From contig OZ253496.1 in assembly GCA_965262115.1 (NCBI GenBank), positions 768,001 through 832,000 of the forward strand: 64,000 nucleotides of DNA, in the 5' to 3' direction. Each line of letters opens with the position of its first letter. Position 1 is the first letter of the stretch. The notes below the pieces were generated by a model. It saw only the letters and a list, made by a program, of their open reading frames with translations, was not told where the DNA came from and ran no database searches. The translations under genes and the position numbers were made by a program. Of the stretch, positions 8,417 to 61,740 are shown in pieces. This DNA is from Nitrospinales bacterium. Its GTDB lineage: Bacteria; Nitrospinota; Nitrospinia; Nitrospinales; VA-1.

Positions 8417-8454
8417 GTGATATTCTTCCCTAACATTCATGCTCTGGAGGGGTA
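8417..8454 (-). repeat. ~40-bp hairpin micro-element, single copy
   Basis: Reverse complement TACCCCTCCAGAGCATGAATGTTAGGGAAGAATATCAC fits the family consensus. Confidence 0.75.
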
Positions 8455-8549
8455 GAAAGTCATTGCTAGTCGGGTCCAGCGTCACGCTGGCGGCGGCTAT
8501 GCCAGTTTATGATACAGTGTTCCAATTCCAACGCAAAAACTTTACGCAC

Positions 8550-10295
8550 ATGACTGGTTATAGAAAACTTCTAAAATTACTTTCGCCTTATAAAAAGCCA
8601 TTGATCTTGGGCGCGATCTTCCTGGTCATCGCATCCCTGACCAATCTGGCCGTGCCTCTCTATATCAAAAAGCTGGTCGATGTGGTCATGGTTGAAAAAA
8701 ATATGGCGCTGATGAACAGCCTCACGTTCAGCATCGCCGGACTGTTCCTGATCCAGCTCATCTTTTCCACCGCCCATAATTACCTGTTTGATCTAACCGA
8801 AAAACGCATCATCACCGATTTCCGTATCAAGCTGTTCAAACATTTGCACACACTTTCGCTCAGTTTTTTTGTCAAACGCCGAACCGGTGAAATCGTCTCG
8901 CGCATGACCAACGACATCACCACGATCGAGAACATCGTCACCGACTTGCCGGCCACCCTCCTTCAGCAATCCATCCGTCTGTTCGGCGGCATCATCATAA
9001 TCACTTATATGAACTGGAGACTAACCGGGTTGATACTGGTGCTGGCCCCGGTTCTGGTATTGTTCGCCCGCACCTTCGGACGCAAGCTGAAAAAACTCTC
9101 AACCGAAATTCAGGACAAGCTAGCCGTGTCCACAATCATTCTGGAAGAAAATATTTCCTGCATCCAGATCGTAAAATCCTTTGTCCGGGAAAAACTGGAA
9201 AACGAACGTTTCGGCACAGCCATGGAGGACAGTTTCCAATCCGCTAAAAAACGCGTCATCATCTCTTCGTTTTTTGGGCCCAGCATTGGCTTCATCGCCT
9301 TTTCCACCTCACTCATCCTGCTCTGGTATGGCGGACGGGAAGTGATTCTGGGAGCCATCAGTCCCGGTGAGCTCATCGCCTTCATTCTATACGCCACCAT
9401 CATAGCCGGGCCAATGGGAAGTTTCGCTCGCCTGTACGCGCGCGTGCAGGAAGGCATTGGCGCCAGCAAACGCGTCTTTGAAATTCTGGATATGAAAGGG
9501 GAAGTCAGCAACATCACCAACGCCAAACCCCTGCCCCATATAGATGGCAAAGTTGAATTCAACAATGTGCATTTCCATTACCGTGAAGATCAGGAAATCA
9601 TCAAGGGCATCAGCTTTACCGTAGAACCAGGGCAAACCGTGGCTTTGGTCGGTCCCAGCGGTGCCGGCAAAACCACACTGGGCCAGCTCCTGCACCGGTT
9701 TTATGATCCGGTATCCGGAGAAATCCGGGTGGACGGCATTGTGCTCAAAACCGTGCAACTGAATAGCTACTGGAGTCAAATCGGCGTCGTGCCGCAAGAA
9801 ACCATTCTGTTTGGCAGCACCATCTTAGCGAACATTGAATACGCAAAACCTGGCGTAACAAGAGAAGAACTCGTGCAAGCAGCGAAAGATGCCAACGCGC
9901 ACAACTTCATCATGGAATGTCCAGACGGCTATGAAACGGTCGTCGGTGAGAAAGGCATCCGCCTGTCGGCCGGGCAAAGGCAACGCATCGCCATTGCCCG
10001 GGCGATTCTAAAAGACCCGCGCATCCTGATTTTGGATGAGGCCACCTCTGCACTCGATAACGAATCTGAATTGCTGATCCAGGACGCGCTGGAGCGGTTG
10101 ATGAAAGGCAGGACATCATTCATCATCGCGCACCGGTTATCGACCATTCACAACGCCGAGCGAATTATCGTTTTAGATAAAGGAAAGCTGGTCGAAAGCG
10201 GCAACCATGCCCAGCTTATGGAACAAGAAGGCATCTATCACAAACTCTACACCCTCAAAAGCCTGCAAACCAGCGTGACGCTGGACTCTAATTAG
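8550..10295 (+). CDS. msbA: ABC exporter, fused TMD-NBD (MsbA-like)
   Basis: Walker A GPSGAGKT, LSAGQRQRIAIARA, ILDEATSALD; start matches the paralogue remnant at 22851. Exact substrate unproven. Confidence 0.8.
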   Translation: MTGYRKLLKLLSPYKKPLILGAIFLVIASLTNLAVPLYIKKLVDVVMVEKNMALMNSLTFSIAGLFLIQLIFSTAHNYLFDLTEKRIITDFRIKLFKHLHTLSLSFFVKRRTGEIVSRMTNDITTIENIVTDLPATLLQQSIRLFGGIIIITYMNWRLTGLILVLAPVLVLFARTFGRKLKKLSTEIQDKLAVSTIILEENISCIQIVKSFVREKLENERFGTAMEDSFQSAKKRVIISSFFGPSIGFIAFSTSLILLWYGGREVILGAISPGELIAFILYATIIAGPMGSFARLYARVQEGIGASKRVFEILDMKGEVSNITNAKPLPHIDGKVEFNNVHFHYREDQEIIKGISFTVEPGQTVALVGPSGAGKTTLGQLLHRFYDPVSGEIRVDGIVLKTVQLNSYWSQIGVVPQETILFGSTILANIEYAKPGVTREELVQAAKDANAHNFIMECPDGYETVVGEKGIRLSAGQRQRIAIARAILKDPRILILDEATSALDNESELLIQDALERLMKGRTSFIIAHRLSTIHNAERIIVLDKGKLVESGNHAQLMEQEGIYHKLYTLKSLQTSVTLDSN

Positions 10296-10447
10296 CACGT
10301 GATATTCTTCCGTAGCTGTGATGTCCTCTTCCTTAAACTTCATGCCCGGCACGGGTACTTCGTGCCCCGGGGGGCAATAACTTTCACAGCACTCAAACCG
10401 TTTAGGCGGCATAATAAGCTATCGCTATTTGCCTCCCTCGCAGAGGG
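10292..10447 (-). mobile_element. MITE-like host repeat carrying two nested 40-bp micro-elements (10299-10378)
   Basis: Near-identical core to 50081-50161; CCCTCTGCGAGGGAGGC end. Confidence 0.8.
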
Positions 10448-10678
10448 TGATCGAGGAAAGCGAAGTCCCCAGCGACTAACCCGTCTTTAAGTTTACCGAC
10501 CTCGAAGCTCCCAAGTAGTCGAATAGTTTTCCCGTTCCAAAAATTTTATTGCCGGAACCGGTTCCGTGCCGGGATGTTGATTTTTGGCAAAGTTGGTTAG
10601 ACACGGGCTATCCACAATTTAAAAACCTGTTTTCGGAAAAAAAGTTAAAAAAATCGTATTTTTATTGATATTTAGGTC

Positions 10679-10707
10679 TTGCTTTTCAAATTTTCAGGGT
10701 CTATTAT
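10679..10707 (+). promoter_or_regulatory. rrn promoter
   Basis: TTGCTT-17-TATTAT; boxA-like GCTCTTTGAAAA near 10868; same sequence in copy 2. Confidence 0.65.
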
Positions 10708-10957
10708 TATCGAGTTGATGAATTTGCCTGCAATCTTTATCTGAAAGTTTTTTCCGGACAAAATTTTGGAAAAGGCTTTCAAATAGAGATTTCTTGCCTT
10801 TTTTTCAGAAAACAAATCAGTTGAAATATTATCCAAACTGCGTAAACTGTTGCGCTTTTTGGACTTCGCTCTTTGAAAATTGAATAGGTGTCAAAAGATG
10901 TTGCGGGTCTAGCAACAATTACTTTGAAGTAAAATTGGATTAAATTTCCATGTTTTA

Positions 10958-12487
<1,530 letters not shown>

Positions 12488-12606
12488 CACTTATCACTTT
12501 TAGTGATACAGCGCTATCTAGATCGATACCTGCAATGTCTTTGGCACCTATTCTTTCTTAATTATTAGGACACTTCAAAATTGGAAGTGCGCTTTAAGCC
12601 TATGAC

Positions 12607-12683
<77 letters not shown>

Positions 12684-12686
12684 CTG

Positions 12687-12778
12687 CTAGCCGCAGGGGC
12701 AGTGAGCAATCGCTTTTTATGGGGGACAAAAAGTTGTCTCGGCTTAAAGGGGTATTGCTAATCCAGCCCTCCCCCACG
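12687..12778 (-). mobile_element. Empty host-MITE copy inside the 16S-23S spacer
   Basis: Reverse complement ...CTTTAAGCCGAGACAACTTTTTG...TTGCTCACTGCCCCTGCGGCTAG aligns by eye with 50013-50184 minus its insert. Confidence 0.6.
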
Positions 12779-12816
12779 AGAGTGGGTATGGAGTTTGAGT
12801 CTGAAGATCCCGTAAC

Positions 12817-12889
12817 GGGGGTGTAGCTCAGTTGGGAGAGCGCCTGCCTTGCACGCAGGAGGTCATCGGTTCGATCCCGTTCACCTCCA
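12817..12889 (+). tRNA. tRNA-Ala(TGC)
   Basis: GGGGGTGTAGCTCAG...TTGCAC...CACCTCCA; CCA not encoded. Confidence 0.98.
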
Positions 12890-13003
12890 TACTCCGGATT
12901 TGTGAGTGTCAATAAAAGTTTAGTTTTTTTTGAAAAAGCCCCTGGCGGGGCGAATGTTCTTTGACAATTGAATATAGTTTGAAGTAGCTGAGGATAAAAT
13001 TTT

Positions 13004-16035
<3,032 letters not shown>

Positions 16036-16090
16036 TATTTTTTCCCCACTACTTCAGACTAATTCAATTGTTAATTCTAAAAATCGGATT

Positions 16091-16208
<118 letters not shown>

Positions 16209-16399
16209 TTTTATTCAAAACGCCGTCAGCTTTATGCTGACGGCACTCCTGCCGATAAACTCAATGAAGCCTTAAATCTACTTTCCCTGGCATTCCAGGT
16301 TTTCACCAGGCTTTTTGCGGATTCCAGGCTGGTCAATAAAATTTGCCACGGCTCTTCATGTAGAACCGAGACTAAAGTATGTCATTTCATTTTCTCCAA

Positions 16400-17933: not shown

Positions 17934-20297
17934 TCAAAACCGTACCTTCATGTTGAGATATCCCGCAACAGAGTCCTCCTGTCCTGACCTGTGCATGTAC
18001 TCAACATCTCCCCCAAAGACAATGTCATCGTCAAGGGAATAGTCCAGTTTCAGACCGGCATAACCACCATGAATCATATCATCGCCCGGGATCCGGTAAG
18101 AAACAATATCCCCGTCACCCAAACGGGCACCGCCACGGTCGCCACCGTAATACGCGATTGTCCCACCACCACGCAACTCAACCTCTCCACGACCATCGGC
18201 AAAACCTCGTGTCAAAGCAAGCTGCGTACGGGCATCCACAATATTCGTGTTGCGGTGCATGAAGTTGATATTCGAATGCACAGTACCTTCCTCCGTATAA
18301 CTACCAAAACGCCCGTAGGTGTAAGCCAGCTGCACACCAGGACGCAACTCAAAACCATCACCCAGTGAATGGGCATACGTCATCGACAAAGACGGACTGA
18401 CATAAAAACTGTCGTAATCTCCCTTCGCTGTCTCATATCCGGATAGATTACGCACCAGACGCTCACTGTCATGAGATGCGTACCCCAGCATTAATGAACC
18501 ATCCAGAGTGAACCCGTCATTTGAATGCTCCCCATAAACCCCGAAAAACACACGGCTGGCAAAATCCCGGACAGAAGTCGCAGAGGTACGAATGTCTCCC
18601 CGACCCCCACCTGCGAATACCCCCGCACGCACTCCATCCGACAGACCCGGAATATCATACCCCAGAACACCCCCATAAAAATTATGACGCCAGGATTGAG
18701 CAAGACCCTCTCCACCACGTTTCATATAACTACCTGAAAAACTCCCCCAGACACCCTCGCCAGACTCACCCCCCCCAGGCGACGCGAGATGTTGAAATAC
18801 CCGACGGTGAATCCGGCCTGTGGTCGCACCCAAAGTGATACGGGTGGCGGATTGCCCTGTCGGGTCAACCAAAACCACCAGAGTATTACCCGCATCACTA
18901 TGTCGTATCTCCAACCTTTCCATCTTCGAACACATGTAGTCTTCGCCCACAAACTCCGAACACAGGTTGACCTCCTCTGCCCCCTTAAAAAAATACGTCG
19001 CCGAATGCGGGTAATCCGCGTAAACTTCCACCACATCGTTGTCTTCTTTCTCCGCAAGTTCCATAACGAGGGTTAAAATATCCTCAGGGGTAGCATCGTT
19101 GCTCGCAGGTTTCCCAGCGCGTTTTAAAAAATCCCTAGCCTCAACCCTGCTCTTAGCCTTGTCGTCACCCCCAAAGTCCTCCTCAACGCGTTTTAAAAGA
19201 TCCCTAGCCTCGTCACCCCCAAGGTCGACTCGCCCAACAACACTCGCCCCTTGCAAAAGCTTCAACGTCTGACTGCCGCGAAAAGAACCTTTCACCGCAT
19301 AAGAACCCGCGCCGGCTGCCGATACACTACCGCCAATCACAATCCGGGCATTACCCCCCGCATAAATACCATGGGACTTATCCCCACTTGTTGTAATTGA
19401 GCCAGTGCTCGTGATCTTCGTTCCGGAGGACTCCTTCCCGTTGGGGGTCCGCGGCAAATAAATACCATGGGACTTATCCCCACTTGTTGTAATTGAGCCA
19501 CTGTTCGTGATAGTCGTTCCGATGAGGGAAGGGTCGGAGATCGCCGCCGCATAAATACCATGGGAATTACCCCCAAACGTTTTTATTACACCTGTTGCAC
19601 TATTCGTGATAGTCACGTCATTACCCCGAGTAACACCAATACCTTTGGAAGCAGTGCTCATGATTCTAGATCTCGTCAGCCCTGGTAGTTGTTCGGTGGT
19701 GCCAACTGTTATCTTGCCGCTATTTATGATAGTCACGTTATTGCCGGACGACGATAAAATACCGGAGGAGGCCCCACCTATTGTCTTGTCGTCCGGAAAT
19801 AACGTGACATCCCTGATCACATCTGTTATCTCGCCTCTATTCTCGATCCTCACGCCATGGCCGAACGATAAAATACCGGTGAAACTACGTGCATTCTTAG
19901 TGGAAGGTCTCAACTCTATTACACCTGTTTTACCATTGGTGATAGCCGCACCTGGACCCATAGATAAAACACCACTGCCTATATCTAGCGAGTCGGCGGC
20001 TACAGTAACCGCAATCGTACCGTTATTGGTGAGATTGGTACCCGCAGCAGTAAAATTAACAACAGTGCTTGTGCATTTTGTGCCCTCCGAAATGGTCATC
20101 TTATTCGCCGAAACGGTCCCCCTCGGCACTGTGCTATCCGGATTCGAGCAAAAACTTGGTAACATATCCTGGGCAAAAACAGGCCCTGATGAAAAAAAAG
20201 ACAAACCAGACACAAAAGCCAGTACAATCGCACTCTGCTGAAATAACAAGGTAAAACTAAAACTGGATTTCTCACTTCTTTTCAATGATGCAGACAT
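17934..20297 (-). CDS. Autotransporter (type Va) adhesin-like protein
   Basis: Signal peptide (VFA|Q), Gly/Thr/Ser-rich beta-helix repeats (GSITTSGDKSHGIY twice; 43-bp exact DNA repeat at 19362 and 19458), C-terminal beta-barrel ending in F. Confidence 0.85.
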   Translation of the reverse strand: MSASLKRSEKSSFSFTLLFQQSAIVLAFVSGLSFFSSGPVFAQDMLPSFCSNPDSTVPRGTVSANKMTISEGTKCTSTVVNFTAAGTNLTNNGTIAVTVAADSLDIGSGVLSMGPGAAITNGKTGVIELRPSTKNARSFTGILSFGHGVRIENRGEITDVIRDVTLFPDDKTIGGASSGILSSSGNNVTIINSGKITVGTTEQLPGLTRSRIMSTASKGIGVTRGNDVTITNSATGVIKTFGGNSHGIYAAAISDPSLIGTTITNSGSITTSGDKSHGIYLPRTPNGKESSGTKITSTGSITTSGDKSHGIYAGGNARIVIGGSVSAAGAGSYAVKGSFRGSQTLKLLQGASVVGRVDLGGDEARDLLKRVEEDFGGDDKAKSRVEARDFLKRAGKPASNDATPEDILTLVMELAEKEDNDVVEVYADYPHSATYFFKGAEEVNLCSEFVGEDYMCSKMERLEIRHSDAGNTLVVLVDPTGQSATRITLGATTGRIHRRVFQHLASPGGGESGEGVWGSFSGSYMKRGGEGLAQSWRHNFYGGVLGYDIPGLSDGVRAGVFAGGGRGDIRTSATSVRDFASRVFFGVYGEHSNDGFTLDGSLMLGYASHDSERLVRNLSGYETAKGDYDSFYVSPSLSMTYAHSLGDGFELRPGVQLAYTYGRFGSYTEEGTVHSNINFMHRNTNIVDARTQLALTRGFADGRGEVELRGGGTIAYYGGDRGGARLGDGDIVSYRIPGDDMIHGGYAGLKLDYSLDDDIVFGGDVEYMHRSGQEDSVAGYLNMKVRF

Positions 20298-20718: not shown

Positions 20719-21825
20719 CTAACCTCCTGCCGCCCCACTCCCCACTTTTCCATAAAGCGTATCCCTTTCAACCGCGTTTCTACCTGCTTCCGCAATCATC
20801 CTCACAATCTGACCCTGATGGAAAATCTGGTCTGTGGCCGCTCCGGCCGCGTGGATGATTTTTTCCTCAACAACTGTTCCATCCATATCATCTGCACCAA
20901 AGGATTGCGCTAACTGTGCTATTTTTGGCGTAATCATTATCCAGAAAGCTTTAATATGTGGAAAATTATCCAACATCAATCTGGAAACTGCCAATGCCCT
21001 TAAATCCAGTTGACCCGGTGTGGTCTTTAAAAATTCCAGCACCGTATTTTCAGGATGAAAGGCCAGCGGGATAAAGGTGACAAATCCTTTTGTGCGATCC
21101 TGCAGTTCCCGCAACCGAACTAAATGGTCAGCTCTTTCTTCCACAGTCTCCAGGTGACCGTATAACATCGTTGCATTACTTTTTAGTCCCAGCTCATGTG
21201 CCGTTTCATGAACACTCAACCAGTGTTCCCCGATTAATTTCTCACCGCAAATCTTTTTTCGCACTCTTTTGGCAAAAATCTCCGCACCCCCTCCAGGGAT
21301 TGATCCCAGGCCGGCTTCTTTAAGTATCATCAGGGTTTCATTCAAGGGAAGTTTGGCCATTTCTGCCAGATAACCCAGTTCAATGGCAGTGAAAGCCTGA
21401 ATGTGAACTTCAGGAAAACGCTCTTTCAATCCCTTCAACATATCCAGGTAATACTCAAAAGGCAGATCAGGATGCAGCCCCCCTACAATATGAAACTCGC
21501 TGACATCGCCACCATTATATTTTTCCGCATCTGAGAAAATCTCATCCAAAGACTTTTCATAAGCATGAGGATGATCCTCTTTCACCCCAAACGCGCAAAA
21601 CTGGCAACTGTGTATACAAATATTGGTAGGGTTGATATGACGGTTGTGAATAAAATAGGTCGTATCCCCATTCATCCTCTCACGAACATGATTAGCCAGA
21701 TAACCCACACCCAAAAGATCCGGACTATTCCAAAGCATCACCCCGTTTTCTAAAGACAGTCGCTCCTGAGCTCTTACTTTTTCATATATAGAATTCAGGT
21801 TTTTATCTTCAAACTCAAAAAGCAT
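20719..21825 (-). CDS. mqnE: Aminofutalosine synthase, second copy
   Basis: Intact paralogue of 6265-7377 with CIHSCQFC. Confidence 0.88.
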   Translation of the reverse strand: MLFEFEDKNLNSIYEKVRAQERLSLENGVMLWNSPDLLGVGYLANHVRERMNGDTTYFIHNRHINPTNICIHSCQFCAFGVKEDHPHAYEKSLDEIFSDAEKYNGGDVSEFHIVGGLHPDLPFEYYLDMLKGLKERFPEVHIQAFTAIELGYLAEMAKLPLNETLMILKEAGLGSIPGGGAEIFAKRVRKKICGEKLIGEHWLSVHETAHELGLKSNATMLYGHLETVEERADHLVRLRELQDRTKGFVTFIPLAFHPENTVLEFLKTTPGQLDLRALAVSRLMLDNFPHIKAFWIMITPKIAQLAQSFGADDMDGTVVEEKIIHAAGAATDQIFHQGQIVRMIAEAGRNAVERDTLYGKVGSGAAGG

Positions 21826-21914
21826 AAAAAGTCACACGCGTTAAATTAATAATCAGGGAGCAAAAATTATACCGGACTTCACGTTAATGAGGAATAAAGT
21901 AATTGAGCAACCAT

Positions 21915-22793
21915 CTACATCCACACACAATCAGCGATAACAAAAACCATAAGACCTGTACTGATAATTCCATTCATATTGAAAAATGCAACATTTATTT
22001 TTGAAAGGTCGTCCGGGCGCACCAGCGAATGCTCATACATCAATAATCCGGCGACAATCACCACCCCGACAGAATACAAAATCCCCAATTCACCAACAAA
22101 TTGCAAAAGCACGAATAGAAAAAGAATCATTAACCCATGCGAAGCAAACGCAATGCGCAAGGCATTTGCAATACCATATTTTTGCGGAATGGATTTTAAA
22201 TTACTTTCCCGGTCAAACTCCACATCCATACAGGAATAGAGGATATCAAACCCTGCCAGCCAGAAAACCACCGCCGCCGCCAACAGCAAAGAAACAAAAG
22301 AAATTTCTTCACGAATGGCCACCCAGGCACCCACCGGTGCAATAGAAATGGCAAGCCCCAACCAGAAATGCGAATAGGCAGTAAAACGTTTCGTCAGCGA
22401 ATAAAAAAATACGCTTATGAGTGCCAAAGGTGAAAGATATAACGCAAGCTCGTTCAACTTACCCGAAGCAAAAATAAAAATTGCAGAAGATGCGATCAAA
22501 AATAACCAGTAACTCTTCACATCCACACGACCCGAAGGTAAAGCCCGACCCTGAGTGCGCGGATTCTTCAAATCAAACCGTGCATCTATAATACGATTAA
22601 ATGCCATGGCCGCGCTTCTCGCACCGACCATACAAACAACAATCCAAACCATCTTCCCGGTTTCAGGCAAGCCTCCGGCCGCAATGAAAGTGCTCATCAC
22701 GGCAAACGGCAACGCAAAAACCGTGTGCTGGATTTTTATATCCGCAAATATAGCTGAAAGTTTCGCCAACAAATAAACCTCTCCCCCAATCAC
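21915..22793 (-). CDS. ubiA: UbiA-family prenyltransferase (MqnP-like), second copy
   Basis: Intact paralogue of 7480-8337; start uncertain. Confidence 0.88.
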   Translation of the reverse strand: MIGGEVYLLAKLSAIFADIKIQHTVFALPFAVMSTFIAAGGLPETGKMVWIVVCMVGARSAAMAFNRIIDARFDLKNPRTQGRALPSGRVDVKSYWLFLIASSAIFIFASGKLNELALYLSPLALISVFFYSLTKRFTAYSHFWLGLAISIAPVGAWVAIREEISFVSLLLAAAVVFWLAGFDILYSCMDVEFDRESNLKSIPQKYGIANALRIAFASHGLMILFLFVLLQFVGELGILYSVGVVIVAGLLMYEHSLVRPDDLSKINVAFFNMNGIISTGLMVFVIADCVWM

Positions 22794-22850
22794 GATCTAC
22801 AAAAAAAATATGATACATTAATCAACTTAACCAAAACCTGCACAATTTAA

Positions 22851-23356
22851 ATGAAAAATTACCGGCAACTCCTGATTCTTCTCATTCCCTGCAAGAAAGC
22901 ATTGTATGCAGGAGCGGTCTGTCTCGTCATTGCCTCATTGACCAACCTCGCCGTCCCCTTCCATATCAAAAAACTGGTAGACGTGGTCATGGTTGAAAAA
23001 AACATGGCATTGATGGCATACCCATTAATACCGTTCAACAAGCCAGCTACTGGCAACAGATCGGCATCGTGCCCCAGGAAACCATTTTGTTTGGTGGCAC
23101 CATTGTAGAAAACATCGAATACGCCAAACCGGGAGTCACCAAGCTGGAAAGGCTTATGGAGGGACGTACTTCGTTCATCATTGTGCATCGGTTATCCACA
23201 ATTCACAACGCCGAGCGCATTATTGTATTGGATAAAGGCAAACTAATCGAAAGCGGTAATCATAGAGAGTTGATGGATAAAGAAGGTTTGTACCACAAAC
23301 TCTATACCCTCAAAAGCTTGCAAATGGTGCAGGAAGCCAACACAGGTTCGCAATAA
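22851..23356 (+). pseudogene. msbA: MsbA-like ABC exporter remnant with two internal deletions
   Basis: N-terminus (to VEKNMALM) fused out of frame to IDG...VPQETILF...AKPGVT, then directly to LERLM...LYTLKSLQ; Walker A, signature and Walker B are lost. Confidence 0.92.
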
Positions 23357-24326
23357 CCTTTATTATCCCAGGTAAACATTTTTCTATACTTGATGATCTT
23401 TCATTTTGTGCCTGGAATCAGAAAAAAAAGGGTTGCGGATTTCCTATATTATGGCAACGATGCTTTGAACCTTGTTCGCCCGTTTTCAGGGCTTCCCGTG
23501 CTGGTATTACAGGTCTGGTTTTTGCCTTCCATCCCTCAATAAGCTTCTGCAAGGCATTGGCACTGTCACTTGCAAATTGTTTTCCCCTTTTTGGTTTTCA
23601 GAAACTGTATTTTGGCAGCGATTTCATGAACGAGCTTCCATGGTATTTTCAATTGTTGTCTGCTGTACCAATTGTTGTCTGCTGTACAAGGAGTGATCGG
23701 TTTCATCCTGCTGTTTTTAATTGGTCTTGGTTTACGTAATCGGTTCCGTTTGAGATAAGGCCAGATGTGGACAAGGGTTCATGCTTTTGAAAAAGGTGTC
23801 GACATGAGTCATGACATAATAGCTTAAGGCTTATTTTGATGATGGCGGGATTGATAAGCGGGCGCGTATTGCGATGCCAAATACCCTGGCTCTTCTTTTC
23901 TCGCCAATCGGATAGAGCGTGTGGGGGATGATTTCTTCTCTGTTTCCAGTCCTCCTCACGATTTAACGGGTTCTTGTTGTCGGAAAGATTAATGAACAAA
24001 TGCCGGGGTGATTGAAAAAAAATCGTATTTTTATTGATATTTAGGTCTTGCTTTTCAAATTTTCAGGGTCTATTATTATCGAGTTGATGAATTTGCCTGC
24101 AATCTTTATCTGAAAGTTTTTTCCGGACAAAATTTTGGAAAAGGCTTTCAAATAGAGATTTCTTGCCTTTTTTTCAGAAAACAAATCAGTTGAAATATTA
24201 TCCAAACTGCGTAAACTGTTGCGCTTTTTGGACTTCGCTCTTTGAAAATTGAATAGGTGTCAAAAGATGTTGCGGGTCTAGCAACAATTACTTTGAAGTA
24301 AAATTGGATTAAATTTCCATGTTTTA

Positions 24327-25856
<1,530 letters not shown>

Positions 25857-46519: not shown

Positions 46520-46637
46520 CAAAACTCCCAGGCGAAGAACCTCCGCCGGCCAGCATGACGCTGGACTCAGTTAGCAATAGCTTTTTACCGCTAGCAATCA
46601 TTCTTCATTGGCCCCGCGCCTAGTGGCCCTCTAGCGA

Positions 46638-46766
46638 GAGACCTTTGCGTAAGTCTATAAATCAGAAAAGCGAGATGCTTCGACAAGCTCAGCATGACAA
46701 TAAAAGGCTATTTTGTCATTCTGAGGAGCTATTGCAACGAAGAATCTTGGGTTATGCAAAGGTCTC
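46638..46766. mobile_element. 129-bp MITE with 15-bp TIRs and 9-bp target duplication
   Basis: GAGACCTTTGCGTAA / TTATGCAAAGGTCTC, flanked by CTCTAGCGA at 46629-46637 and 46767-46775. Confidence 0.88.
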
Positions 46767-46768
46767 CT

Positions 46769-47096
46769 CTAGCGAGGGAGGTAACTGGGCAGGGGTTTCT
46801 TTAAGCCGCGAAACCCTTTGCTCACCAAATAAAATTATTACCCCTTCGGGGCACGAAATACCCGTGCCGGGCATGAAGGCAAAGGTAAAATATCACATAC
46901 CCGTGCCGGGCATGAAGGCAAAGGTAAAATATCACATACCCGTGCCGGGCATGAAGGCAAAGGTAAAATATCACATACCCGTGCCGGGCATGAAGGCAAA
47001 GGTAAAATATCACATACCCGTGCCGGGCATGAAGGCGAATGAAGAGGACATCACATCTGAGGAAGAATATCACGTGCTCATTGGCCACACGCTTAG
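46769..47096 (+). mobile_element. Host MITE with a micro-element holding five tandem inner copies
   Basis: Matches 50013-50184 apart from the expanded insert. Confidence 0.85.
46858..47054 (+). repeat. Tandem array: 4 x 39 bp identical plus one 41-bp variant
   Basis: Unit ATACCCGTGCCGGGCATGAAGGCAAAGGTAAAATATCAC at 46858, 46897, 46936, 46975; variant at 47014. Confidence 0.95.
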
Positions 47097-49971: not shown

Positions 49972-50012
49972 AACATCAAAAAAAAATCCACCCAGGGGAG
50001 CTGAGTGGCCCT

Positions 50013-50184
50013 CTAGCGAGGGAGGCAACTGGGCAGGGGCTTCTTTAAGCCGCGAAACCCTTTGCTCGCCAAATAAAGTTATTACCCCTTCGGGGCACGA
50101 AATACCCGTGCCGGGCATGAAGTTTAAGGAAGAGGACATCACAGCTACGGAAGAATATCACGTGCTCATTGGCCCCACGCCTAG
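50013..50184 (+). mobile_element. Host MITE (CTAG-bounded) with two nested micro-elements (50081-50161)
   Basis: CTAG-CGAGGGAGGCAA...TTGGCCCCACGC-CTAG imperfect inverted ends. Confidence 0.85.
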
Positions 50185-50218
50185 TGGCAATCTTAGCGAT
50201 CCCCCCCTACCTCCAAAT

Positions 50219-50507: not shown

Positions 50508-50598
50508 GGTATTCTCAAATCGGTTTAAAACAACATTATATGATATCAACCCTACTTAAAAAACCCGCCGAAATTCTTCGGGGAGCCCGGATAGAAAC

Positions 50599-52041: not shown

Positions 52042-52064
52042 CACACCGGAAGGAGTCCCATTCA

Positions 52065-53971: not shown

Positions 53972-54046
53972 TGTCCTTCTGTCATGGTGAATCCATTTTC
54001 TTTTTTCCGGGATCCTTGACCTGAACCCATAAAAGCAAAACTAAAC

Positions 54047-54412
54047 ATGAAAACCATCCTCGTTGTTGATGACGAACAAAATATCAGGTTTCTTTATAAA
54101 GAAGAGCTTGAAGATGCCGGTTACCGGGTTTCGGTGGCTGCCACCGGCGAGGAAGCCCTGAAAATGTTAGACAAGCAGGCTCCGGACCTCATTATCCTGG
54201 ACATCAAAATTCCTGGAATGGACGGCATTGAGGTCATGCGGAAAATCAAGAGTGAAAAGGGCGATATTCCCATAATACTTTGTTCTGCTTATGGCCAGTA
54301 CAAGCAGGACTTTAGAGTATGGGCCTCGGATGCCTATGTGGTCAAATCGGCGGATCTCAGGGAACTGAAACTCACCATCAAGGAGATTTTCAATCAGCTA
54401 AAAGCGGGTTGA
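54047..54412 (+). CDS. Single-domain response regulator
   Basis: LVVDDE, IILDIKIPGMDG, YVVKS. Confidence 0.93.
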   Translation: MKTILVVDDEQNIRFLYKEELEDAGYRVSVAATGEEALKMLDKQAPDLIILDIKIPGMDGIEVMRKIKSEKGDIPIILCSAYGQYKQDFRVWASDAYVVKSADLRELKLTIKEIFNQLKAG

Positions 54413-54422
54413 TCAGAATAAA

Positions 54423-55073
54423 ATGGCCAAGCAAACCATCGAACCCAGGTTCATTGCTGTTGAAGGCGCTATAGGCGCGGGCAAAACATCTTTGGTCAGC
54501 CTCCTTGAACAACAATATGGCGCCCGGGTAATTCTGGAGGAGAACGATTCCAATCCCTTTATCGCGAAATTTTATGAGGATCAGGAAACCTACTCCTTTC
54601 AAACCCAGATTTTTTTTTTACTGAACCGTTACAATCAGTATATGGAGCTAGCGCAGAGAGACCTGTTTAACTCCGTGGTCGTGATCGACTACCTGTTTCA
54701 ACGCGACAAAATATTCGCCCAGCTCAACCTGGAAGATCACGAGTATCGCCTGTATGAACAAATCTTCAACCTACTCGGTCCCAAAGCTCCGAAACCCGAT
54801 TTAGTCATTTTTTTGCAGGCCAGCACCGAAGTGTTGATGGAGAGAGTTTCCAAAAGAGGCCGGGATTATGAAGCTTTTATGGACCCCGATTATCTTGGTT
54901 CGGTGAACAAGGCTTTCAATAATTTCTTTTTTTACTACTCCGACACACCGCTTTTGGTCATAAATACCAATGAGATCGACTTTGTTGAAAAAAAATGTGA
55001 CCTGGAAGAGTTGATTAACAAGATCAACAGCCATAAAATAGGCAGAGAATATTATAACCCGCTTGGATCCTAA
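54423..55073 (+). CDS. Deoxynucleoside kinase
   Basis: AVEGAIGAGKT, FQTQIFFL, PDLVIFLQA, RGRDYE. Confidence 0.92.
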   Translation: MAKQTIEPRFIAVEGAIGAGKTSLVSLLEQQYGARVILEENDSNPFIAKFYEDQETYSFQTQIFFLLNRYNQYMELAQRDLFNSVVVIDYLFQRDKIFAQLNLEDHEYRLYEQIFNLLGPKAPKPDLVIFLQASTEVLMERVSKRGRDYEAFMDPDYLGSVNKAFNNFFFYYSDTPLLVINTNEIDFVEKKCDLEELINKINSHKIGREYYNPLGS

Positions 55074-55086
55074 CGGACCGGGACGG
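55059..55086 (+). promoter_or_regulatory. Candidate pan RNA motif
   Basis: Hairpin CCG-CTTGG-(A)-TCC[TAAC]GGA-CCGGG-(A)-CGG with two bulged As, upstream of panB. Confidence 0.6.
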
Positions 55087-55249
55087 AGTGAGCTTCATAA
55101 ATCAAGGCGAACGTAATTCGGGGACCCCATTGGCGGCCTCAAAATTTTTCATAGCGTTCTCCATGCTACGCTGCTCCCACAGCATTTGCTGCTGGTTTCA
55201 TTTTTTGATTCCCCCCGTTTGGCCTCAAGCCTTATCCGTATAAAAGACC

Positions 55250-56095
55250 ATGGATAACAGGCCTGTCACCGTCCCTGAAGTTTCAGGGAGAAAAAATTCA
55301 GGGAAAAAGATCACCGCCCTGACCGCTTACGATTACAGCTTCGCGAAACTCCTCGACGCAACAGATTTAGACATCATTCTGGTGGGAGATTCCTTAGGGA
55401 TGGTTTCCCTAGGCCATGAGAACACCCTCGCAGTGACTATGGAAAACATGGTCGACCATATCCGTGCCGTCAAACAAGGCGCCCAGCGCGCATTGGTTGT
55501 GGGCGATATGCCGTTCATGTCCTATCAGGTTTCAGTGGAACAGGCAGTGACTAACGCTGGCCGCCTGATTCAGGAAGGCGGGGCCTCCGCCGTCAAACTC
55601 GAAGGGGGAGTCCGCGTGTCCGACAGGGTTCAGGCGATTGTTCAGACGGGAATTCCCGTCATGGGCCATATTGGCTTGACCCCGCAATCCGTCCATCAAT
55701 TTGGCGGCTATAAAGTGCAGGGCAAAAACTATCTCGACTCCCGGCAAATCAAGCAGGATGCGCACGAGCTGCAAAACGCCGGCATCTTTGCTCTGGTTCT
55801 GGAGGGCATCCCCGGTGGACTTGCAGAAGAAATCACTGCCGAACTAAAAATACCGACCATCGGTATTGGGGCCGGCTCTAAATGTGACGGACAGATTCTG
55901 GTGCTTCACGACCTGCTCGGACTGAATCAGGACTTCGTGCCCAAATTCGTAAAACAATACGCCCAACTGGCTGATAGTCTGAAGGACGCGGTTTCCGAAT
56001 ACATACAGGACGTCAGGAGCGAAACCTTTCCGGGGCAGGAACATACCTATCATTCAAAACAGGGAAAACTCAAACAGGTCAACGATGGGGACTAA
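55250..56095 (+). CDS. panB: 3-methyl-2-oxobutanoate hydroxymethyltransferase
   Basis: LTAYD, ILVGDSLG, GDMPF, VKLEGG, GHIGLTPQS. Confidence 0.97.
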   Translation: MDNRPVTVPEVSGRKNSGKKITALTAYDYSFAKLLDATDLDIILVGDSLGMVSLGHENTLAVTMENMVDHIRAVKQGAQRALVVGDMPFMSYQVSVEQAVTNAGRLIQEGGASAVKLEGGVRVSDRVQAIVQTGIPVMGHIGLTPQSVHQFGGYKVQGKNYLDSRQIKQDAHELQNAGIFALVLEGIPGGLAEEITAELKIPTIGIGAGSKCDGQILVLHDLLGLNQDFVPKFVKQYAQLADSLKDAVSEYIQDVRSETFPGQEHTYHSKQGKLKQVNDGD

Positions 56096-56960
56096 AATTA
56101 AATCTAGAACCTTGCGAGAAATATCCTCCATTTCCGAAATGAAAGATATTTCTCAATCGTTGCGGAAACAGAACCTGACTATAGGTATTGTGCCGACTAT
56201 GGGTTGCCTCCATGCAGGTCATTTAAACCTGGTCAAAAGATCATTGGAAACCTGTGACCGAACCGTGGTCAGTATTTTTATCAACCCCACCCAGTTTGGT
56301 CCCAACGAAGATATTGATACCTACCCACGCCAGTTGGAGAGCGACATCGAGAAGCTGGAGACAATAGGCGCCGACATTATGTTCCATCCGACCAAAGAGG
56401 AGATGTATCCACCTGACTACAAAACCTATGTAGAAGTGCAGAGCATCACCGAACAGTTATGCGGCAAAAGTCGGCCCGATCTTTTTGCGGGAGTCAGCAC
56501 AGTAGTGTTAAAACTGTTCAATATCGTGCGACCCCATCATGCTTACTTTGGCGAAAAAGACTGGCAACAGCTTGCCGTCATCGAGGCTCTGGTCGACGAT
56601 TTAAACCTTGATGTTGCCATCATCCGTGTCCCAATTGTAAGGGAACCTGATGGACTTGCCATGAGTTCCAGAAACCGCTATTTGTCACCTCAAGAGAGAC
56701 AATCCGCGCTGTCTTTATCGCGTTCGCTTCAGCAGGCCCGGGACAATATTCGCCGGGGGACGACTTCGGCAAAAGTGATCCACGATTCAATCCGGCAATG
56801 CCTGTCTGAGGAAGAAGGAACAGAAATCGACTATATTTCCATTTGCGATCCAGAAAGTTTCAAGGAAAAAGAACAAATACGTGGTAGAACGCTGATCGCC
56901 CTCGCGGTGAAGGTCGGCCCGTCACGGCTCATTGACAATTGCATTATCGAGGAGTTCTGA
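56085..56960 (+). CDS. panC: Pantoate-beta-alanine ligase
   Basis: VPTMGCLHAGH, FINPTQF, FGEKD, GLAMSSRN, RLIDN. Confidence 0.97.
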   Translation: MGTKIKSRTLREISSISEMKDISQSLRKQNLTIGIVPTMGCLHAGHLNLVKRSLETCDRTVVSIFINPTQFGPNEDIDTYPRQLESDIEKLETIGADIMFHPTKEEMYPPDYKTYVEVQSITEQLCGKSRPDLFAGVSTVVLKLFNIVRPHHAYFGEKDWQQLAVIEALVDDLNLDVAIIRVPIVREPDGLAMSSRNRYLSPQERQSALSLSRSLQQARDNIRRGTTSAKVIHDSIRQCLSEEEGTEIDYISICDPESFKEKEQIRGRTLIALAVKVGPSRLIDNCIIEEF

Positions 56961-57313
56961 TGCAAAGAATTATGCTTAAATCCAAACTTCACCGCGCCCG
57001 GGTAACGGCAACAGAGATTGATTATGAAGGCAGTATCGCCATTGATGAAGACCTGTTGGAAAGGGTCGGCATTCTGCCTCTTGAACAGGTCCATATCTAT
57101 AACATTAACACCGGAGGCCGGTTCGTCACCTATGTCATCACCGCCGAACGGGGGTCCGGAATTTTTTCAATCAATGGCGCAGCCGCCCGTCTGGCGCAGA
57201 TAAATGATCGTATCATCGTCGCGGCTTATGGTATGATAGATACCGAACAAGAAAGCCATAATGCCCAGGTCGTTCTTCTCGACGAGAGCAATAAAATCGT
57301 CGAAGGCCAATGA
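56960..57313 (+). CDS. panD: Aspartate 1-decarboxylase
   Basis: MLKSKLHRA, YEGSI cleavage site, NGAAAR. Confidence 0.96.
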   Translation: MQRIMLKSKLHRARVTATEIDYEGSIAIDEDLLERVGILPLEQVHIYNINTGGRFVTYVITAERGSGIFSINGAAARLAQINDRIIVAAYGMIDTEQESHNAQVVLLDESNKIVEGQ

Positions 57314-57363
57314 GCATTTATTAAGTTTGTCCCAATAGTCCCTTTTACAAAAAAGAGGTTATC

Positions 57364-58113
57364 TTGCCCGATCTTTTTATATATGGCGCCGCCGGATTCA
57401 TGGTCTGGATGTGTCTGGACTGCATCCAGCGCCGCGAGCATTTTATCTGGATCATCATCATGATCATCCTCTTCCCCGTAGGGGCGGTGGCCTATTTCTT
57501 TGTGGTGAAAAACCGCGCTGGTGAAGGTAAAACTGGGTTCTCCATCACTCCTATCCGTAAAGAAGCTGAAACAGAAGAAACCCTGCAACTCAAGGAGCTG
57601 ATCGGAAAACACCACAAAGCCTACCACTACGAAAAACTTGGGCAGGTCTACATCGAGCGGAAAAAGTTTGAGCAGGCAATTCCCGAGTTTGAGGAAGCCA
57701 TCCAACGCGACCCGGAAATGCTGGAAGCCCGTTATGGTCTGGCCAAAAGCCTTCACGGAATGGGCAACTATGCAGAAGCCGCCGTTGCTCTGGAAAAACT
57801 GACCGCCATCGACAAAAAATACGATTATGGCAATGCCATTTTCGGCCTCGCAGAAAGCTATCGTTTGTCCGGCAATGAAGAAAAAGCTCTGGAAAAATAT
57901 CGTGAGGTCATAAACTCCTTCCACTTTTTTAAGGCCTATTACCACTACGCCCGTCTTCTCGACAAAAGAGGTAAAAAACAGGAAGCCATCGACCATATGA
58001 AAAGTATTGTCGGCTCTTCCAAAGACCTGCCCGACTACAAACTTGAAAAAGAGCGGTTCTGGATTGATGAGGCTTATAAATTTCTAAGAAAAAATGGAAT
58101 TGAGTTGGCCTGA
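57364..58113 (+). CDS. Membrane-anchored TPR protein
   Basis: Two N-terminal TM helices followed by TPR-like helices. Confidence 0.82.
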   Translation: MPDLFIYGAAGFMVWMCLDCIQRREHFIWIIIMIILFPVGAVAYFFVVKNRAGEGKTGFSITPIRKEAETEETLQLKELIGKHHKAYHYEKLGQVYIERKKFEQAIPEFEEAIQRDPEMLEARYGLAKSLHGMGNYAEAAVALEKLTAIDKKYDYGNAIFGLAESYRLSGNEEKALEKYREVINSFHFFKAYYHYARLLDKRGKKQEAIDHMKSIVGSSKDLPDYKLEKERFWIDEAYKFLRKNGIELA

Positions 58114-58240
58114 GCGGAAAACCTCCGCTGGCATAAGTAATAGCTTTTTAAGCCGGGAGCACTAGTTAGCCAGACAAATCTAGGCTTATTGGCCCCACCT
58201 GAGCGGGGGAAGTAAAACCCACTTATGGGTTTCAAAAACA

Positions 58241-58792
58241 ATGACAGTCCTTTCTGAAAATCTAAAGACCCTCAGAAAAAAACTCAACTGCACACAGATG
58301 GCCCTTTCAGAAGTCCTTGAAATCGGATTCAGTACCTATGTCCGATACGAAGCGGGGGAAAGAGACGCGCCGGTCTCGGTCATGGTCAAACTTGCCAAAC
58401 TGGGGAACGTGTCGCTCGACCGCCTGCTGACCACTAAAATCCTGCCGGAAGACCTCGACACCCCGGACCAGGAAAAACCTCAATCCACCATCCACAACGC
58501 AGAAGTGACCGGTGGTGGCATTGAAGAAGGACGGTTGATGCTCAAAGGATTTCTGACCGACAATCTGGTCACCAATAATAAAGAAGAGCAAAAATTGCTC
58601 ACCCTGTTTAGAAAAACCAACCGCCCTAATCGGGAAAAGTTCCTGCTCGACCTGGAATGGGTGTTCAGCAATACCCGAAGGTCACGACTCACCAGCGCAA
58701 AAAAAATTCCCCGCAAACTGGAAAAAGCCCAGACCGCCGTCAAACTGAAAAAACTCGCCAAAAATATCAAAAAAATTACCGTCCGCGGCTGA
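58241..58792 (+). CDS. XRE-family HTH regulator
   Basis: NLKTLRKK..TQ..LSE.L.I...TY.RYE.G. Confidence 0.85.
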   Translation: MTVLSENLKTLRKKLNCTQMALSEVLEIGFSTYVRYEAGERDAPVSVMVKLAKLGNVSLDRLLTTKILPEDLDTPDQEKPQSTIHNAEVTGGGIEEGRLMLKGFLTDNLVTNNKEEQKLLTLFRKTNRPNREKFLLDLEWVFSNTRRSRLTSAKKIPRKLEKAQTAVKLKKLAKNIKKITVRG

Positions 58793-58963
58793 CCGGCGAG
58801 CCGCCGGGGGCAACTGCAATAGCGTTAATGACCTAACAACGGGTTAACTCGGCTTAAAAAGGCTTTGCCCCCTCTTTTTAAAGAGGGTCGGGGTAATTTT
58901 ACATTCAGGGAGTTGAATTCCCACAGTCGCGACCACCGAAAGCGTGGAGGTCGACTTACGGCC

Positions 58964-59082
58964 ATGGTATTTGTGCTATCCACTTCCTTAAACTTCATGA
59001 GCGTATGATATTTCCAACCTCGGACTCATCCCCGCAAGGGGTAGCACGGGTACTTCCTAAACTTCGTGCCTCAGAGGGGTAT
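58964..59082 (-). repeat. Three nested 40-bp micro-elements
   Basis: Outer 58964-58972 + 59054-59082; middle 58973-59004 + 59044-59053; inner 59005-59043. Confidence 0.75.
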
Positions 59083-59128
59083 GACCCCTTTACTTTATCT
59101 GACAATACAAATAACTTGAGGAACGTTC

Positions 59129-59724
59129 ATGCAAACTATTTCACTACCAGAACTGAGCATCGTCTTCATTCCAGCGGCTTTTCTGCTGGCTGTAATGTTC
59201 CACTGGCAACTCAAAGCCTGGGTTGGCCTGTACGCGAATGTCCGTATGCTCCTCCAGCTACTATTGGTTGGCTATTTTATCACTTACGTCTTCGACACCA
59301 CACAACCCCTGGTCATTGTTGTAGTGGTGGCCATAATGATAGCGGTCTCTGCGTGGATCGCACTCAGATCGCTCGACGAGCACGGACCCAAAAACTCTAC
59401 CTCATCGTTCTGGTCTCAATCGGGGGGCCTGGGTTGGTCCTGCTGGCGGTTGTGACACAACTTGTGTTGGAGATGCCACGATGGTTCGAGCCAAGCCTGG
59501 TAATTCCAATTGCCGGAATGATCTTTGCGAATTCAATGAACACGGTTAGCCTGGCAGCAGAACGTTTTGAATCGGAATTCAAACGGGGCGAAAACACCAT
59601 AATCGCAAGGCGGACTGCTTTGGATGCCGCTCTTATACCGCAGATCAATAGTCTTTTTGCTGTCGGATTGGTTGCGCTACCTGGAATGGACGGGACAGAT
59701 TCTTTCCGGCGTGGGGCCAAATAG
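59129..59724 (+). pseudogene. UPF0014/FetB-type ABC permease, frameshifted and 3'-truncated
   Basis: RMLLQLLLVGY...; frameshift near 59390; IPIAGMIFANSMN, IPQINSL, LPGM; second shift into TGQILSG, then a repeat replaces the C-terminus. Confidence 0.82.
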
Positions 59725-59731
59725 GGCGGTG

Positions 59732-59771
59732 ATAACCCTGCGGGGCATGAAGGCCAGGGTAGGAACATGAC
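59732..59771 (+). repeat. 40-bp micro-element inside a GGCGGTGACGC...GCGACCGCC hairpin
   Basis: Uninterrupted hairpin copies at 60296-60319 and 61791-61814. Confidence 0.8.
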
Positions 59772-59929
59772 ACGCACTCGCGACCGCCTTCTTCTGCGGA
59801 CCCAATTGGTTGCCGTTGCGAGCCGCAGAGCGGCGCGGCGACCCAGTTTAATTTGTTTATATTGATAAGTTAAAACTGTTATTCTTAATAAACAGGTTTC
59901 ATCCCCGACATAAACTCCAGGAGATCAAA

Positions 59930-60295
59930 ATGAAAAAGATATTTTTTGCGGTTCTATTGCTAGTGACGGGAATCTTATTTTCTTCCACCGCTTTTGCCCA
60001 CGATGGTGAAGCCCATGCTAAAGATATGTATGAAGAAGGCAGTGGCGGTTCCTCAATGGATATGGGCCACAAAGCTGGTGCAACGGATCATGAATATAAA
60101 GGTGAACATGCCGGTGGAGCGGAGCATTCCAAAGAATATTATGAAAAGAAATACGGCAAATACGAACATGAAAAACAAGGAATGCAGGAAGAAGGTAGCG
60201 GTATGAAAGAAGAAGCCATGAAGATGAGAGAAATGGAACATCAACGCATGGAAGAAGGCAGCAGAATGCAACCCGCTAGCGAGGGAGGCCAATAG
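59930..60295 (+). CDS. Secreted His/Met/Glu-rich protein
   Basis: AGGAG RBS, signal peptide AFA|HDGEAH, three EEGS repeats. Confidence 0.8.
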   Translation: MKKIFFAVLLLVTGILFSSTAFAHDGEAHAKDMYEEGSGGSSMDMGHKAGATDHEYKGEHAGGAEHSKEYYEKKYGKYEHEKQGMQEEGSGMKEEAMKMREMEHQRMEEGSRMQPASEGGQ

Positions 60296-60446
60296 GGCGG
60301 TGACGCTACCGCGACCGCCTTTGAACCGGTTTTAATAATTCCTCTCCCCTTGAGGGAGAGGATTAAGGTGAGGGGGATTGCAAAAAATTCTCATAATTTC
60401 TAGTAGGCTTAAAAGTGGATCGTCTGTTTCATAGCAGAGTCGGCTA

Positions 60447-61232
60447 TTAATGCCTTAAATGAAAATCAACTATCCCAGCTTTACCCGGCCCAAAATGACA
60501 AGTAGCCGTATAAGGCAGTTCTGCACCAAGCAGATTTTTGGCATCAAAATTAATTTTCACCACAACGTTGTGAATTGTAGGAGCCTTATATACACTTGTT
60601 CCTATAAAGTGATGGATATCTAACTCACTGGGAAGTGTTGCGCTGGATTTTATTGTATCTATGCAAGCCGCCCTCGCCATTTACTTATTCCACGATCTAT
60701 CAGCTTGAGTCATTACTTTTTTGCCTTTAGCAATTTCTTTTTCATTAAGAAATACCCTATGCCCATTACGGCAGTCGGCAAAAAATGTTAAGTTGTTTAT
60801 TGGACTCTTCAAAGATAATTCTACAAATTCTATAAATTTGCACTTACGGCTATCTAATACCATTTCAGCGGTACGCCTTCTAAAATGCTCAATTTCTTTC
60901 AAACGAGTTTTATATTTCGTCACTGTCTCAGGATAACCTTTCATTGTATAAGGCCATAAGCCACTAGGGCCGATCCTATTACGATACTTGTCCAGGGAGG
61001 CCTCTTCCAGCATGTTAGTATACTTTGTTGAATAACTAAGAAAATCACGAGTGCATTCTTCCATGTCCAGAGGAAGGTTATAACCATGACCGCTGCTTGC
61101 TAAAAATTTACAAGTCGAATAGCGGTTTGATTCTCTTGTTTTCTCGGCGTTTTCCCCAAATGATAAACTGGTAAAAAACAAGAAAATAAAAGACCCAAAA
61201 ACAACTCGCCTGATATCCGCTGATATTTTCAC
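60447..61232 (-). pseudogene. AT-rich exported hypothetical gene with in-frame TAA at 60681-60683
   Basis: Two ORFs abut in the same frame (RSWNK*MARAAC); could alternatively be two genes. Confidence 0.55.
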
Positions 61233-61438
61233 AAATCCTCCCTATGTTTTGTTGAAAAAAATAACTTTAGCATCTATAAAATAAAGCGTAACCTTATGAA
61301 GGATTAAGACACAGGCCTTCATACTCCCCCGGCTTCGTTTCAGTCAGCTTGAAAGTGATACCGTTGATGGAGGTTGCGGTTTGCTTTTCTAAGTTAATTT
61401 TGTAGGAACCCATCACTCACTAAAGGGGTAAAGGGGTC

Positions 61439-61477
61439 ATACCCCTCTGGGGCACGAGAGTTAATGAAGAATATCAC
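61439..61477 (+). repeat. 40-bp micro-element
   Basis: GTAAAGGGGTC|ATACCCCTCTGGGGCACGAGAGTTAATGAAGAATATCAC; same left flank as the 59082 locus. Confidence 0.8.
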
Positions 61478-61619
61478 GAGATTCTTGACTACAACTTGCA
61501 GCGAACCCTTCTTTATATCCCTGAAACAAATTCCCCAGACGAAATCATACCACATCCTTCGAGGACCTCAGGATGACAACTAACCCTCTCCCTTATCTGG
61601 GAGACCCGTAAACTAGATT

Positions 61620-61740
61620 CGTCATCGCGAGCGACAGAAAGGAGCGCGGCGATCCAGTCTTTCTGGATTTACCCCTGCGGGGCACGAAAATTAATTAGGA
61701 GATATCACGGCTTCGTCGCCTCTGGCTCCCCGCAATGACG
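61620..61740. repeat. REP-like palindrome pair interrupted by a 40-bp micro-element (61669-61708)
   Basis: CGTCATCGCGAG...GCGATCCAG / CTGGAT[insert]GGCTTCG...CGCAATGACG. Confidence 0.8.

Follow-up and report, generated by a model that had tools for sequence, protein, structure and literature searches.

The SDR1-8 repeats of Nostoc punctiforme, cyanobacterial modules reportedly described by Elhai et al. 2008 (Genome Res 18:1484), are said to be 21-27 nt long and to insert into one another without duplication. In the passages cited here, SDR5 is described as inserting at a fixed HIP1 site (PMC4390886), and CGTC-type REPs as having no dedicated transposase (PMC3733652). HUH enzymes are described there as choosing their cut site through the pairing of bases lying 5' of a hairpin (PMC6006769, PMC8266576), the RAYT cut falling within the paired dinucleotide, C|T (PMC8266576). 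How very small repeats such as SDRs and CGTC-type REPs spread without a dedicated transposase is the question on which the element that we describe here bears, a hairpin-bearing 40-mer found in a 64,000-nt stretch of a marine, Nitrospina-type Nitrospinales genome (contig OZ253496.1, positions 768,001-832,000; "the window") and in many more copies in the genome to which it belongs (G000), which consists of one contig of 2.68 Mb and is 93.9% complete. We found no published description of the 40-mer in the literature searched, most subscription papers being outside the reach of that search, and it is covered by no Rfam family.

The 40-mer is a real, lineage-specific, ultra-small mobile unit. An earlier note on this window had proposed a minimal, non-autonomous mobile unit with a single hairpin and sharp ends, which causes no duplication and inserts into itself, and exact empty sites and orthologous comparisons now back that proposal. 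Each unit reads TACCC...ATCACR and is 39-41 nt long. The two ends are unlike each other, with no terminal inverted repeats and no target duplication, and multimers are either nested or head-to-tail, with 33 distinct tandem junctions. When the flanks of the 140 distinct non-tandem sites are joined, 21 recur exactly, as 18-mers without loss or gain of a base, at another place in the genome (six of the remaining sites fit only at +1, one only at -1, and the others have no exact match), which defines the unit as given above, its last purine included. In the consensus proposed earlier, the leading (A) is the last base of an upstream tandem copy and the end is in fact ATCAC+R; the cut suggested "at ATCAC" was one base off. 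We also compared sites between genomes, setting G000 against parts of G013 (0.84 Mb) and G019 (1.03 Mb). Exact empties were found in 12 of 194 orthologue comparisons, at 11 sites (three are self-targets, which are weaker cases), the others being two offset parses, 29 filled, 14 other and 137 without host repeat or flank. One filled/empty pair is orthologous over ~150 bp on each side. Presence/absence polymorphism with precise ends is thus found both within the genome and in relatives, and the copies did not prove to be fixed parts of a larger known element.

Iterative regex excision of full units yielded 212 full copies in G000, 192 of them 39-41 nt long, and none in the reversed genome used as a control; a stricter tail pattern, applied later, gave 202 copies in 180 blocks. 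This high-copy imperfect palindrome is intergenic, with only 5 of the 180 blocks inside open reading frame (ORF) proxies. Of 36 further family genomes, 24 have the pattern, against none of 24 genomes from three sister families; the named records with true copies are from Nitrospina/Nitrospinota. Matches outside Nitrospinota in the genome scan were single, stemless and judged by eye to be chance, with the exception of L053:1501-1542, a true copy among Nitrospina-type host repeats on a contig labelled Neomarinimicrobiota, which may reflect mis-binning or transfer. Three copies lie in unique flanks on two phage contigs (L331:3001-3040, L332:3001-3040 and L333:3001-3041); one copy-bearing phage contig is Mu-like by eye, and in L332 an ORF overlaps the copy with its 3' end. 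An IS3-family element in G000 carries the 40-mer inside (G000:C1 695213, 1391696, 1667298 and others), and 17 of 17 of its junctions are filled by the 40-mer, 10 of these being split in turn by an IS110. The first 100 kb of G000:C1 has no copies; its first ~80 kb, with long low-complexity tandem repeats, may be foreign or mis-assembled, and the commonest words in the genome are (CA)n and poly-G.

How the element folds was predicted from covariation among 447 distinct copies taken from G000, the fetched parts of G013 and G019, and stem-filtered scan loci. After average product correction, the two top pairs are 6-10 and 16-last, both Watson-Crick, and strong covariation is limited to these two, with no separate left-end and right-end hairpins. 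Pair 6-10 (C-G in 308 copies, G-C in 56, T-A in 25) closes a 3-nt loop, which on the reverse strand is GNA in 217 of 233, GNA triloops being extra-stable in DNA. In pair 16-last, the Y of CAYG is matched with the terminal base (T-A 236, C-G 154, T-G 43, C-A 11, and 3 gaps), with a mutual information of 0.47 against at most 0.20 in the intervening columns. This coupling persists within 18 strata of the adjacent four bases, with a Mantel-Haenszel odds ratio of ~100, and in an independent metagenome set 16-last is Watson-Crick in 106 of 134. Among copies with near-identical middles (edit distance <=1), both bases are switched in 13 pairs, Y alone in 15 and R alone in 8, so that ancestry and decay contribute to the signal. 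Because 16-last pairing requires the far end to lie beside the foot of the hairpin, it predicts an end-joined single-stranded intermediate, although the pair could also form in place, with no circle needed. With its ends joined, the reverse strand reads CRTGCCCS-GNA-SGGGTAYG, an 8-bp stem. Under DNA folding parameters, joining the ends stabilises the reverse strand by 2.1 kcal/mol (mean energy -3.55 before, -5.65 after) and the forward strand by 0.7 kcal/mol (-3.63 before, -4.35 after). Together, GNA loops with compensatory closing pairs and the 16-last pair lend support to single-stranded DNA as the mobile form.

As for where the 40-mer lands, the 279 non-tandem sites fall into 103 flank classes, of which 74 are singletons, with a weak target motif WK|NSYNC (S at +2 in 88 of the 103 classes, Y at +3 in 81 and C at +5 in 62). 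The variable middle was considered as a target guide and rejected, no Watson-Crick covariation with the flanks being seen in 132 class representatives. That most copies sit in another repeat, as claimed earlier, holds genome-wide, where an empty homologue with at most 5 mismatches in 26 exists for 97 of 145 sites; the claim fares less well in the window itself, where a homologue exists for 5 of the 9 loci (in one case a single weak match) and for none of 12 random joins. Of the pairs of identical copies, 66% have both flanks in common, 21% the downstream flank only and 10% the upstream flank only, compared with ~1% for distant copies, and 22 pairs of near-identical copies stand in unrelated flanks. 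These figures show that homology-free insertion and flank-linked copying both occur.

Filled sites often show a reproducible change in the downstream flank. Set against the empty-site consensus, 97 sites have peaks of change at +3, with 17 cases of G>C, and at +4, with 17 of G>T; the upstream flank has no corresponding peak. Where the element's own loop is the target, 23 of the 32 filled sites have CT and none of the 408 intact ones does, and in a second, unrelated host repeat CT is found in 20 of 34 filled-pattern matches (the pattern admits some chance matches) and 0 of 146 empty sites; in all, 0 of 554 empty sites have CT at +3/+4. In a third host class, all 13 filled sites have A>C at +5, against none of 27 empty ones, and the flank of AGGGC-type targets is unchanged. 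The orthologous filled/empty pair displays GG>CT too. In 23 loop insertions, +1 follows the recipient's closing base in 22 and +3/+4 is CT in 17, the triple nest of the window (Table 1) being one of those with the recipient's +1 kept and CT. Family-wide, a pattern without upstream flank and restricted to S-K at these positions gave 41 CT and 12 GG rows in the element's own genus (11 genomes), and 36 GG rows plus 21 CGCTC rows, the latter in G071 and G074, in other genera; judging from like copies, the CGCTC rows appear to be a different target with native CT. Copies are 39-40 nt long in 40 of the 41 CT rows and 41 nt long in 9 of the 12 GG rows. On another contig (G069:C62 8140-14577), loop-nested copies are dense, with 7 matches in 6.4 kb, none with the CT change. 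The change admits two readings: carry-over from donors whose flank fits the motif, or writing during insertion.

Weighing all this, we give a probability of about 0.5 to the view that the 40-mer is a non-coding unit which inserts exactly and without duplication, likely as single-stranded DNA with its ends meeting, and which is cut and rejoined by an enzyme that we have not found. The mobile strand would be the reverse one, 5'-YGTGAT...TTCR-TGCCCS-GNA-SGGGTA-3', in which the CR at the hairpin foot would pair with the first two bases, YG, so that the joined ends would form a single 8-bp stem with a GNA loop. The product would be a dumbbell-shaped circle of 40 nt, or else the fold would form in place. 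Such an arrangement would follow the guide-at-hairpin-foot logic of HUH substrates (IS200/IS605, RAYT), turned on the element's own end, a putative parallel based on anatomy and on the cited passages of PMC6006769 and PMC8266576. Targets are specified weakly, by WK|NSYNC, and lie mostly in other palindromic repeats. By a presumed second route, copies would spread with their flanks, more often the downstream one, through host-repeat movement or short-homology copying. A more specific version seems doubtful to us, in which the one hairpin guides both ends of a 40-nt dumbbell circle and the mover, an enzyme of none of the families searched (HUH, DDE, tyrosine recombinase, reverse transcriptase), rewrites GG>CT 2 nt from the junction. 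If true, this dumbbell-circle 40-mer would be among the smallest mobile DNAs.

Several observations weigh against an end-joined unit handled by an HUH-like enzyme. The HUH/Y1 mobiliser suggested in the earlier note was not found in G000, where PF01797, PF04986 and PF02486 have no match and NF047646 has a weak one at best (E 0.02). In the family, Y1 genes do not track copy number: G013 and G007 are rich in copies but have no Y1 gene, whereas G009 has Y1 genes and no copies; of 16 Y1 loci from 12 of 41 family genomes, one has a copy within 1.5 kb and none is flanked by copies. Whereas RAYT, in the cited passages, cuts within the paired dinucleotide (PMC8266576), both paired bases here travel with the element. 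Pure trans-mobilisation does not predict flank-linked spread, and the GG>CT change is unaccounted for by the favoured model. Orientation shows no replichore bias (34+/43-, 48+/51-), which host-repeat movement could blur, and the copies in the covariation counts share kinship and are therefore not independent events. Finally, T-G exceeds C-A at 16-last, the opposite of what wobble on the reverse strand would give. This excess could be explained if younger inner copies of A type had formed chimeras with older outer copies of G type; the upstream copy is A-type at all 33 tandem junctions.

Other candidate movers fared no better. PF07282 has no match in G000, nor did we find an IS91, Rep_trans, TnpB or intact reverse transcriptase gene there, the sole reverse transcriptase match (G000:C1 50216-51029; L028, L029) being broken by internal stops. 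Four tyrosine-recombinase matches are present in G000, and TIGR02249 was matched in 0 of 23 genomes, its control likewise giving 0. No recurrent ORF lies between or beside copies. Small GIY-YIG genes were rejected because they occur in nearly all genomes of the genus, copy-free ones included, and DUF559 because it is missing from copy-rich G007 and G004. Small multi-copy DUF559 nuclease genes (G000:C1 377342, 660854, 735352, 1582297 and 1589932) are bounded by a CCCCTCCC-type palindrome where inspected, and small GIY-YIG genes occur too; these may be repeat-plus-nuclease units.

A first alternative, to which we accord a minor but appreciable chance, dispenses with a dedicated enzyme. Copies would spread mainly by hitch-hiking in mobile host repeats and by short-homology copying (gene conversion or single-stranded DNA annealing at the fork), and the end-pairing fold would merely extrude the 40 nt, letting the flanks pair with an empty site. 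This would fit a flank class that is predicted by element identity with a downstream bias, the 137 of 194 orthologous comparisons that are without the host repeat altogether, the filling of every IS3-borne junction, the failure to find a mobiliser in G000, and one orthologous insertion that changed 5 of 6 downstream bases to a sequence known from other filled sites. However, the singleton classes, the pairs in unrelated flanks and the unique phage flanks need homology-free insertion. Moreover, flanks are unchanged at most orthologous empties, and there is no general excess of flank changes besides GG>CT.

That a short RNA, linear or circular, is reverse-transcribed into new sites is improbable. 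The forward strand can form cUNCGg loops, C-UNCG-G is indeed the commonest forward head, and the head-to-tail arrays with their many distinct junctions would suit such a template. Yet position 6 covaries with 10, in the register of a triloop, and not with 11. Copies have no bias relative to the direction of transcription (38 sense vs 40 antisense), nor do they show the duplications or truncations typical of target-primed reverse transcription, and the only reverse transcriptase match contains internal stops.

The CT change also calls to mind the IS110 that splits copies of the 40-mer. G000 contains 26 left and 26 right ends of this IS621-like element (e.g. L021, L192), none of them in the window. 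In the cited passages on the bridge-RNA scheme of IS621/IS110 (PMC11208160), a PF02371 recombinase and a CT core are combined with left and right target guides in the left non-coding end. The IS110 here matches that description in its recombinase (PF02371, 32 matches in G000, 15 of them in a 336-aa frame), its CT core, present on both sides (donor junction ACAGTTG-CT-TGTAT), its left-end guides matching the target and its insertion into palindromic repeats, but differs from it in that the target is itself a mobile 40-mer. The right arm of the 40-mer comes after every one of the 26 right ends, and its left arm stands before 25 of the left ends, the remaining left end following another IS110's own non-coding end (near 2035033). 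In an internal loop, the left non-coding end bears TACCCCT together with the complement of CTTCGGG. By eye, both guides change with the target at five homologous loci in sister families (G052, G041, G047 and two in G050), and in G000 and at these loci the 7-nt guides have 0-2 mismatches to their own targets. The IS110 lands in the hairpin loop of the 40-mer, putatively by means of bridge-RNA-type guides. Its left end is present in 8 of 70 family genomes, copy-rich G007 retaining only a 48-bp remnant, and this patchiness makes it likely that the IS110 is a parasite of the 40-mer and not its mover. One genome thus holds a three-level chain, with an IS110 inside a 40-mer inside an IS3 or host repeats. 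The converse, that the resident IS110 recombinase moves the 40-mer in trans and writes its CT core downstream, is very unlikely, even though ~26 IS110 copies target the 40-mer and the flank change equals the IS110 core. Element junctions have no shared core, and the CT lies 2 nt off with recipient bases in between. CT rows also occur in G004, G005, G008, G018 and G020, where no IS110 left end was found (these are fragmented assemblies), homologues in other families target other repeats, and inspection by eye showed no guide matching the tail of the 40-mer.

It is least credible of all that the copies are fixed sub-parts or ends of a larger element or gene, for instance a GxxExxY gene start, since the 41-nt copies do encode a plausible, MKFKEEDIT-like N-terminus but this frame continues into no gene, no conserved ORF runs from the ATG, PF13366 has no match in G000, no recurrent gene lies near copies, and unrelated flanks go together with exact empties.

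Within the window, all of the ~18 copies that the earlier note had placed at 9 loci are there (Table 1), and the head pattern gives 11 matches versus 0 in 100 shuffles. None of the nine loci has a clean empty orthologue in the parts of G013 and G019 compared. The nested copy at 10317-10357 is common to the window and G019, which is also filled at the third locus of the table, where G013 has other sequence. Whole host-repeat blocks (46613-47088 and 50008-50202) are absent from the related contig X5. Contigs break at the tandem array, whose copy number is that of the G000 assembly only. In the triple nest, the inner copy sits in the loop of the middle one.

Table 1. Copies of the 40-mer and associated features in the window.
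Position	Strand	Feature
8416..8454	-	Single copy, 39 nt, stem decayed; T16 with terminal G (mismatch class)
10298..10376	-	Outer copy with decayed head, holding a nested 41-nt copy (10317-10357)
38368..38406	-	Single 39-nt copy
46839..47074	+	Outer copy split after CACGAAA by five head-to-tail copies
46859-47014, 47015-47055	+	Four identical 39-mers, then one 41-mer, inside outer copy 46839..47074
50083..50162	+	Outer copy with nested 41-nt copy (50103-50143)
58963..59081	-	Decayed triple nest: outer 58963-59081, middle 58972-59052, inner 59004-59043
59000..59001	-	GG>CT at +3/+4 downstream of inner copy; recipient's +1 C retained
59733..59772	+	Single 40-nt copy, first bases variant
61440..61478	+	Single 39-nt copy
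61670..61709	+	Single 40-nt copy in GGATT|GCTTCG host repeat, which occurs empty too

The window also contains two identical rRNA operons in direct orientation (10647-16234 and 24016-29603), 13,369 bp apart and preceded by paralogous gene blocks that are ~76% alike (6265-10295 and 20719-23324), and three ~95-bp direct repeats (19362-19614) within a 787-aa ORF (17934-20297).

The 40-mer, with a predicted clasp of two bases at its ends and a defined strand, its occurrence as both filled and empty alleles and the recurring change in its flank, is a sharp, testable substrate, and a precise, duplication-free 40-nt insertion reaction would interest both mechanism and tool work. Among described systems, it resembles SDR1-8, compared here by general description, in being a very small module that inserts precisely with no known enzyme. 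To our knowledge, neither an end-to-foot pair nor a flank change has been described for SDRs. With REP/BIME and REPIN plus RAYT, as presented in the cited passages, it shares a high-copy, lineage-specific intergenic hairpin, unpaired foot bases as a possible guide, and targeting by an IS110 (PMC3116915, PMC3733652, PMC8266576, PMC6006769). Unlike REP/RAYT, it has a consensus foot TTCR on the GNA strand, with no GTAG or CGTC, and a 20-nt tail with a fixed far end; its junctions are not C|T, no RAYT was found in G000, and copies flank none of the Y1 loci of the family. Unlike a REPIN, it leaves exact empties as a single-hairpin unit and forms head-to-tail or nested multimers with no inverted doublet. 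The likeness to IS200/IS605 (IS608, ISDra2), again within the cited passages, lies in the absence of target duplication, a strand-specific hairpin whose foot bases would pair with the cut site, and a weakly specified flank motif that lies, on the hairpin strand, 5' of the element (PMC6006769). The difference is that one hairpin would serve both ends, that the whole measures 40 nt and that a weak motif is seen where a fixed target tetra- or pentanucleotide would be expected, to which are added the lack of replichore bias and of TnpA or TnpB in G000. From a MITE it differs in having no terminal inverted repeats and no target duplication. The 40-mer works like SDR/REP-type repeats, yet it does not qualify as a REP, a REPIN, a MITE or an IS200/IS605 derivative.

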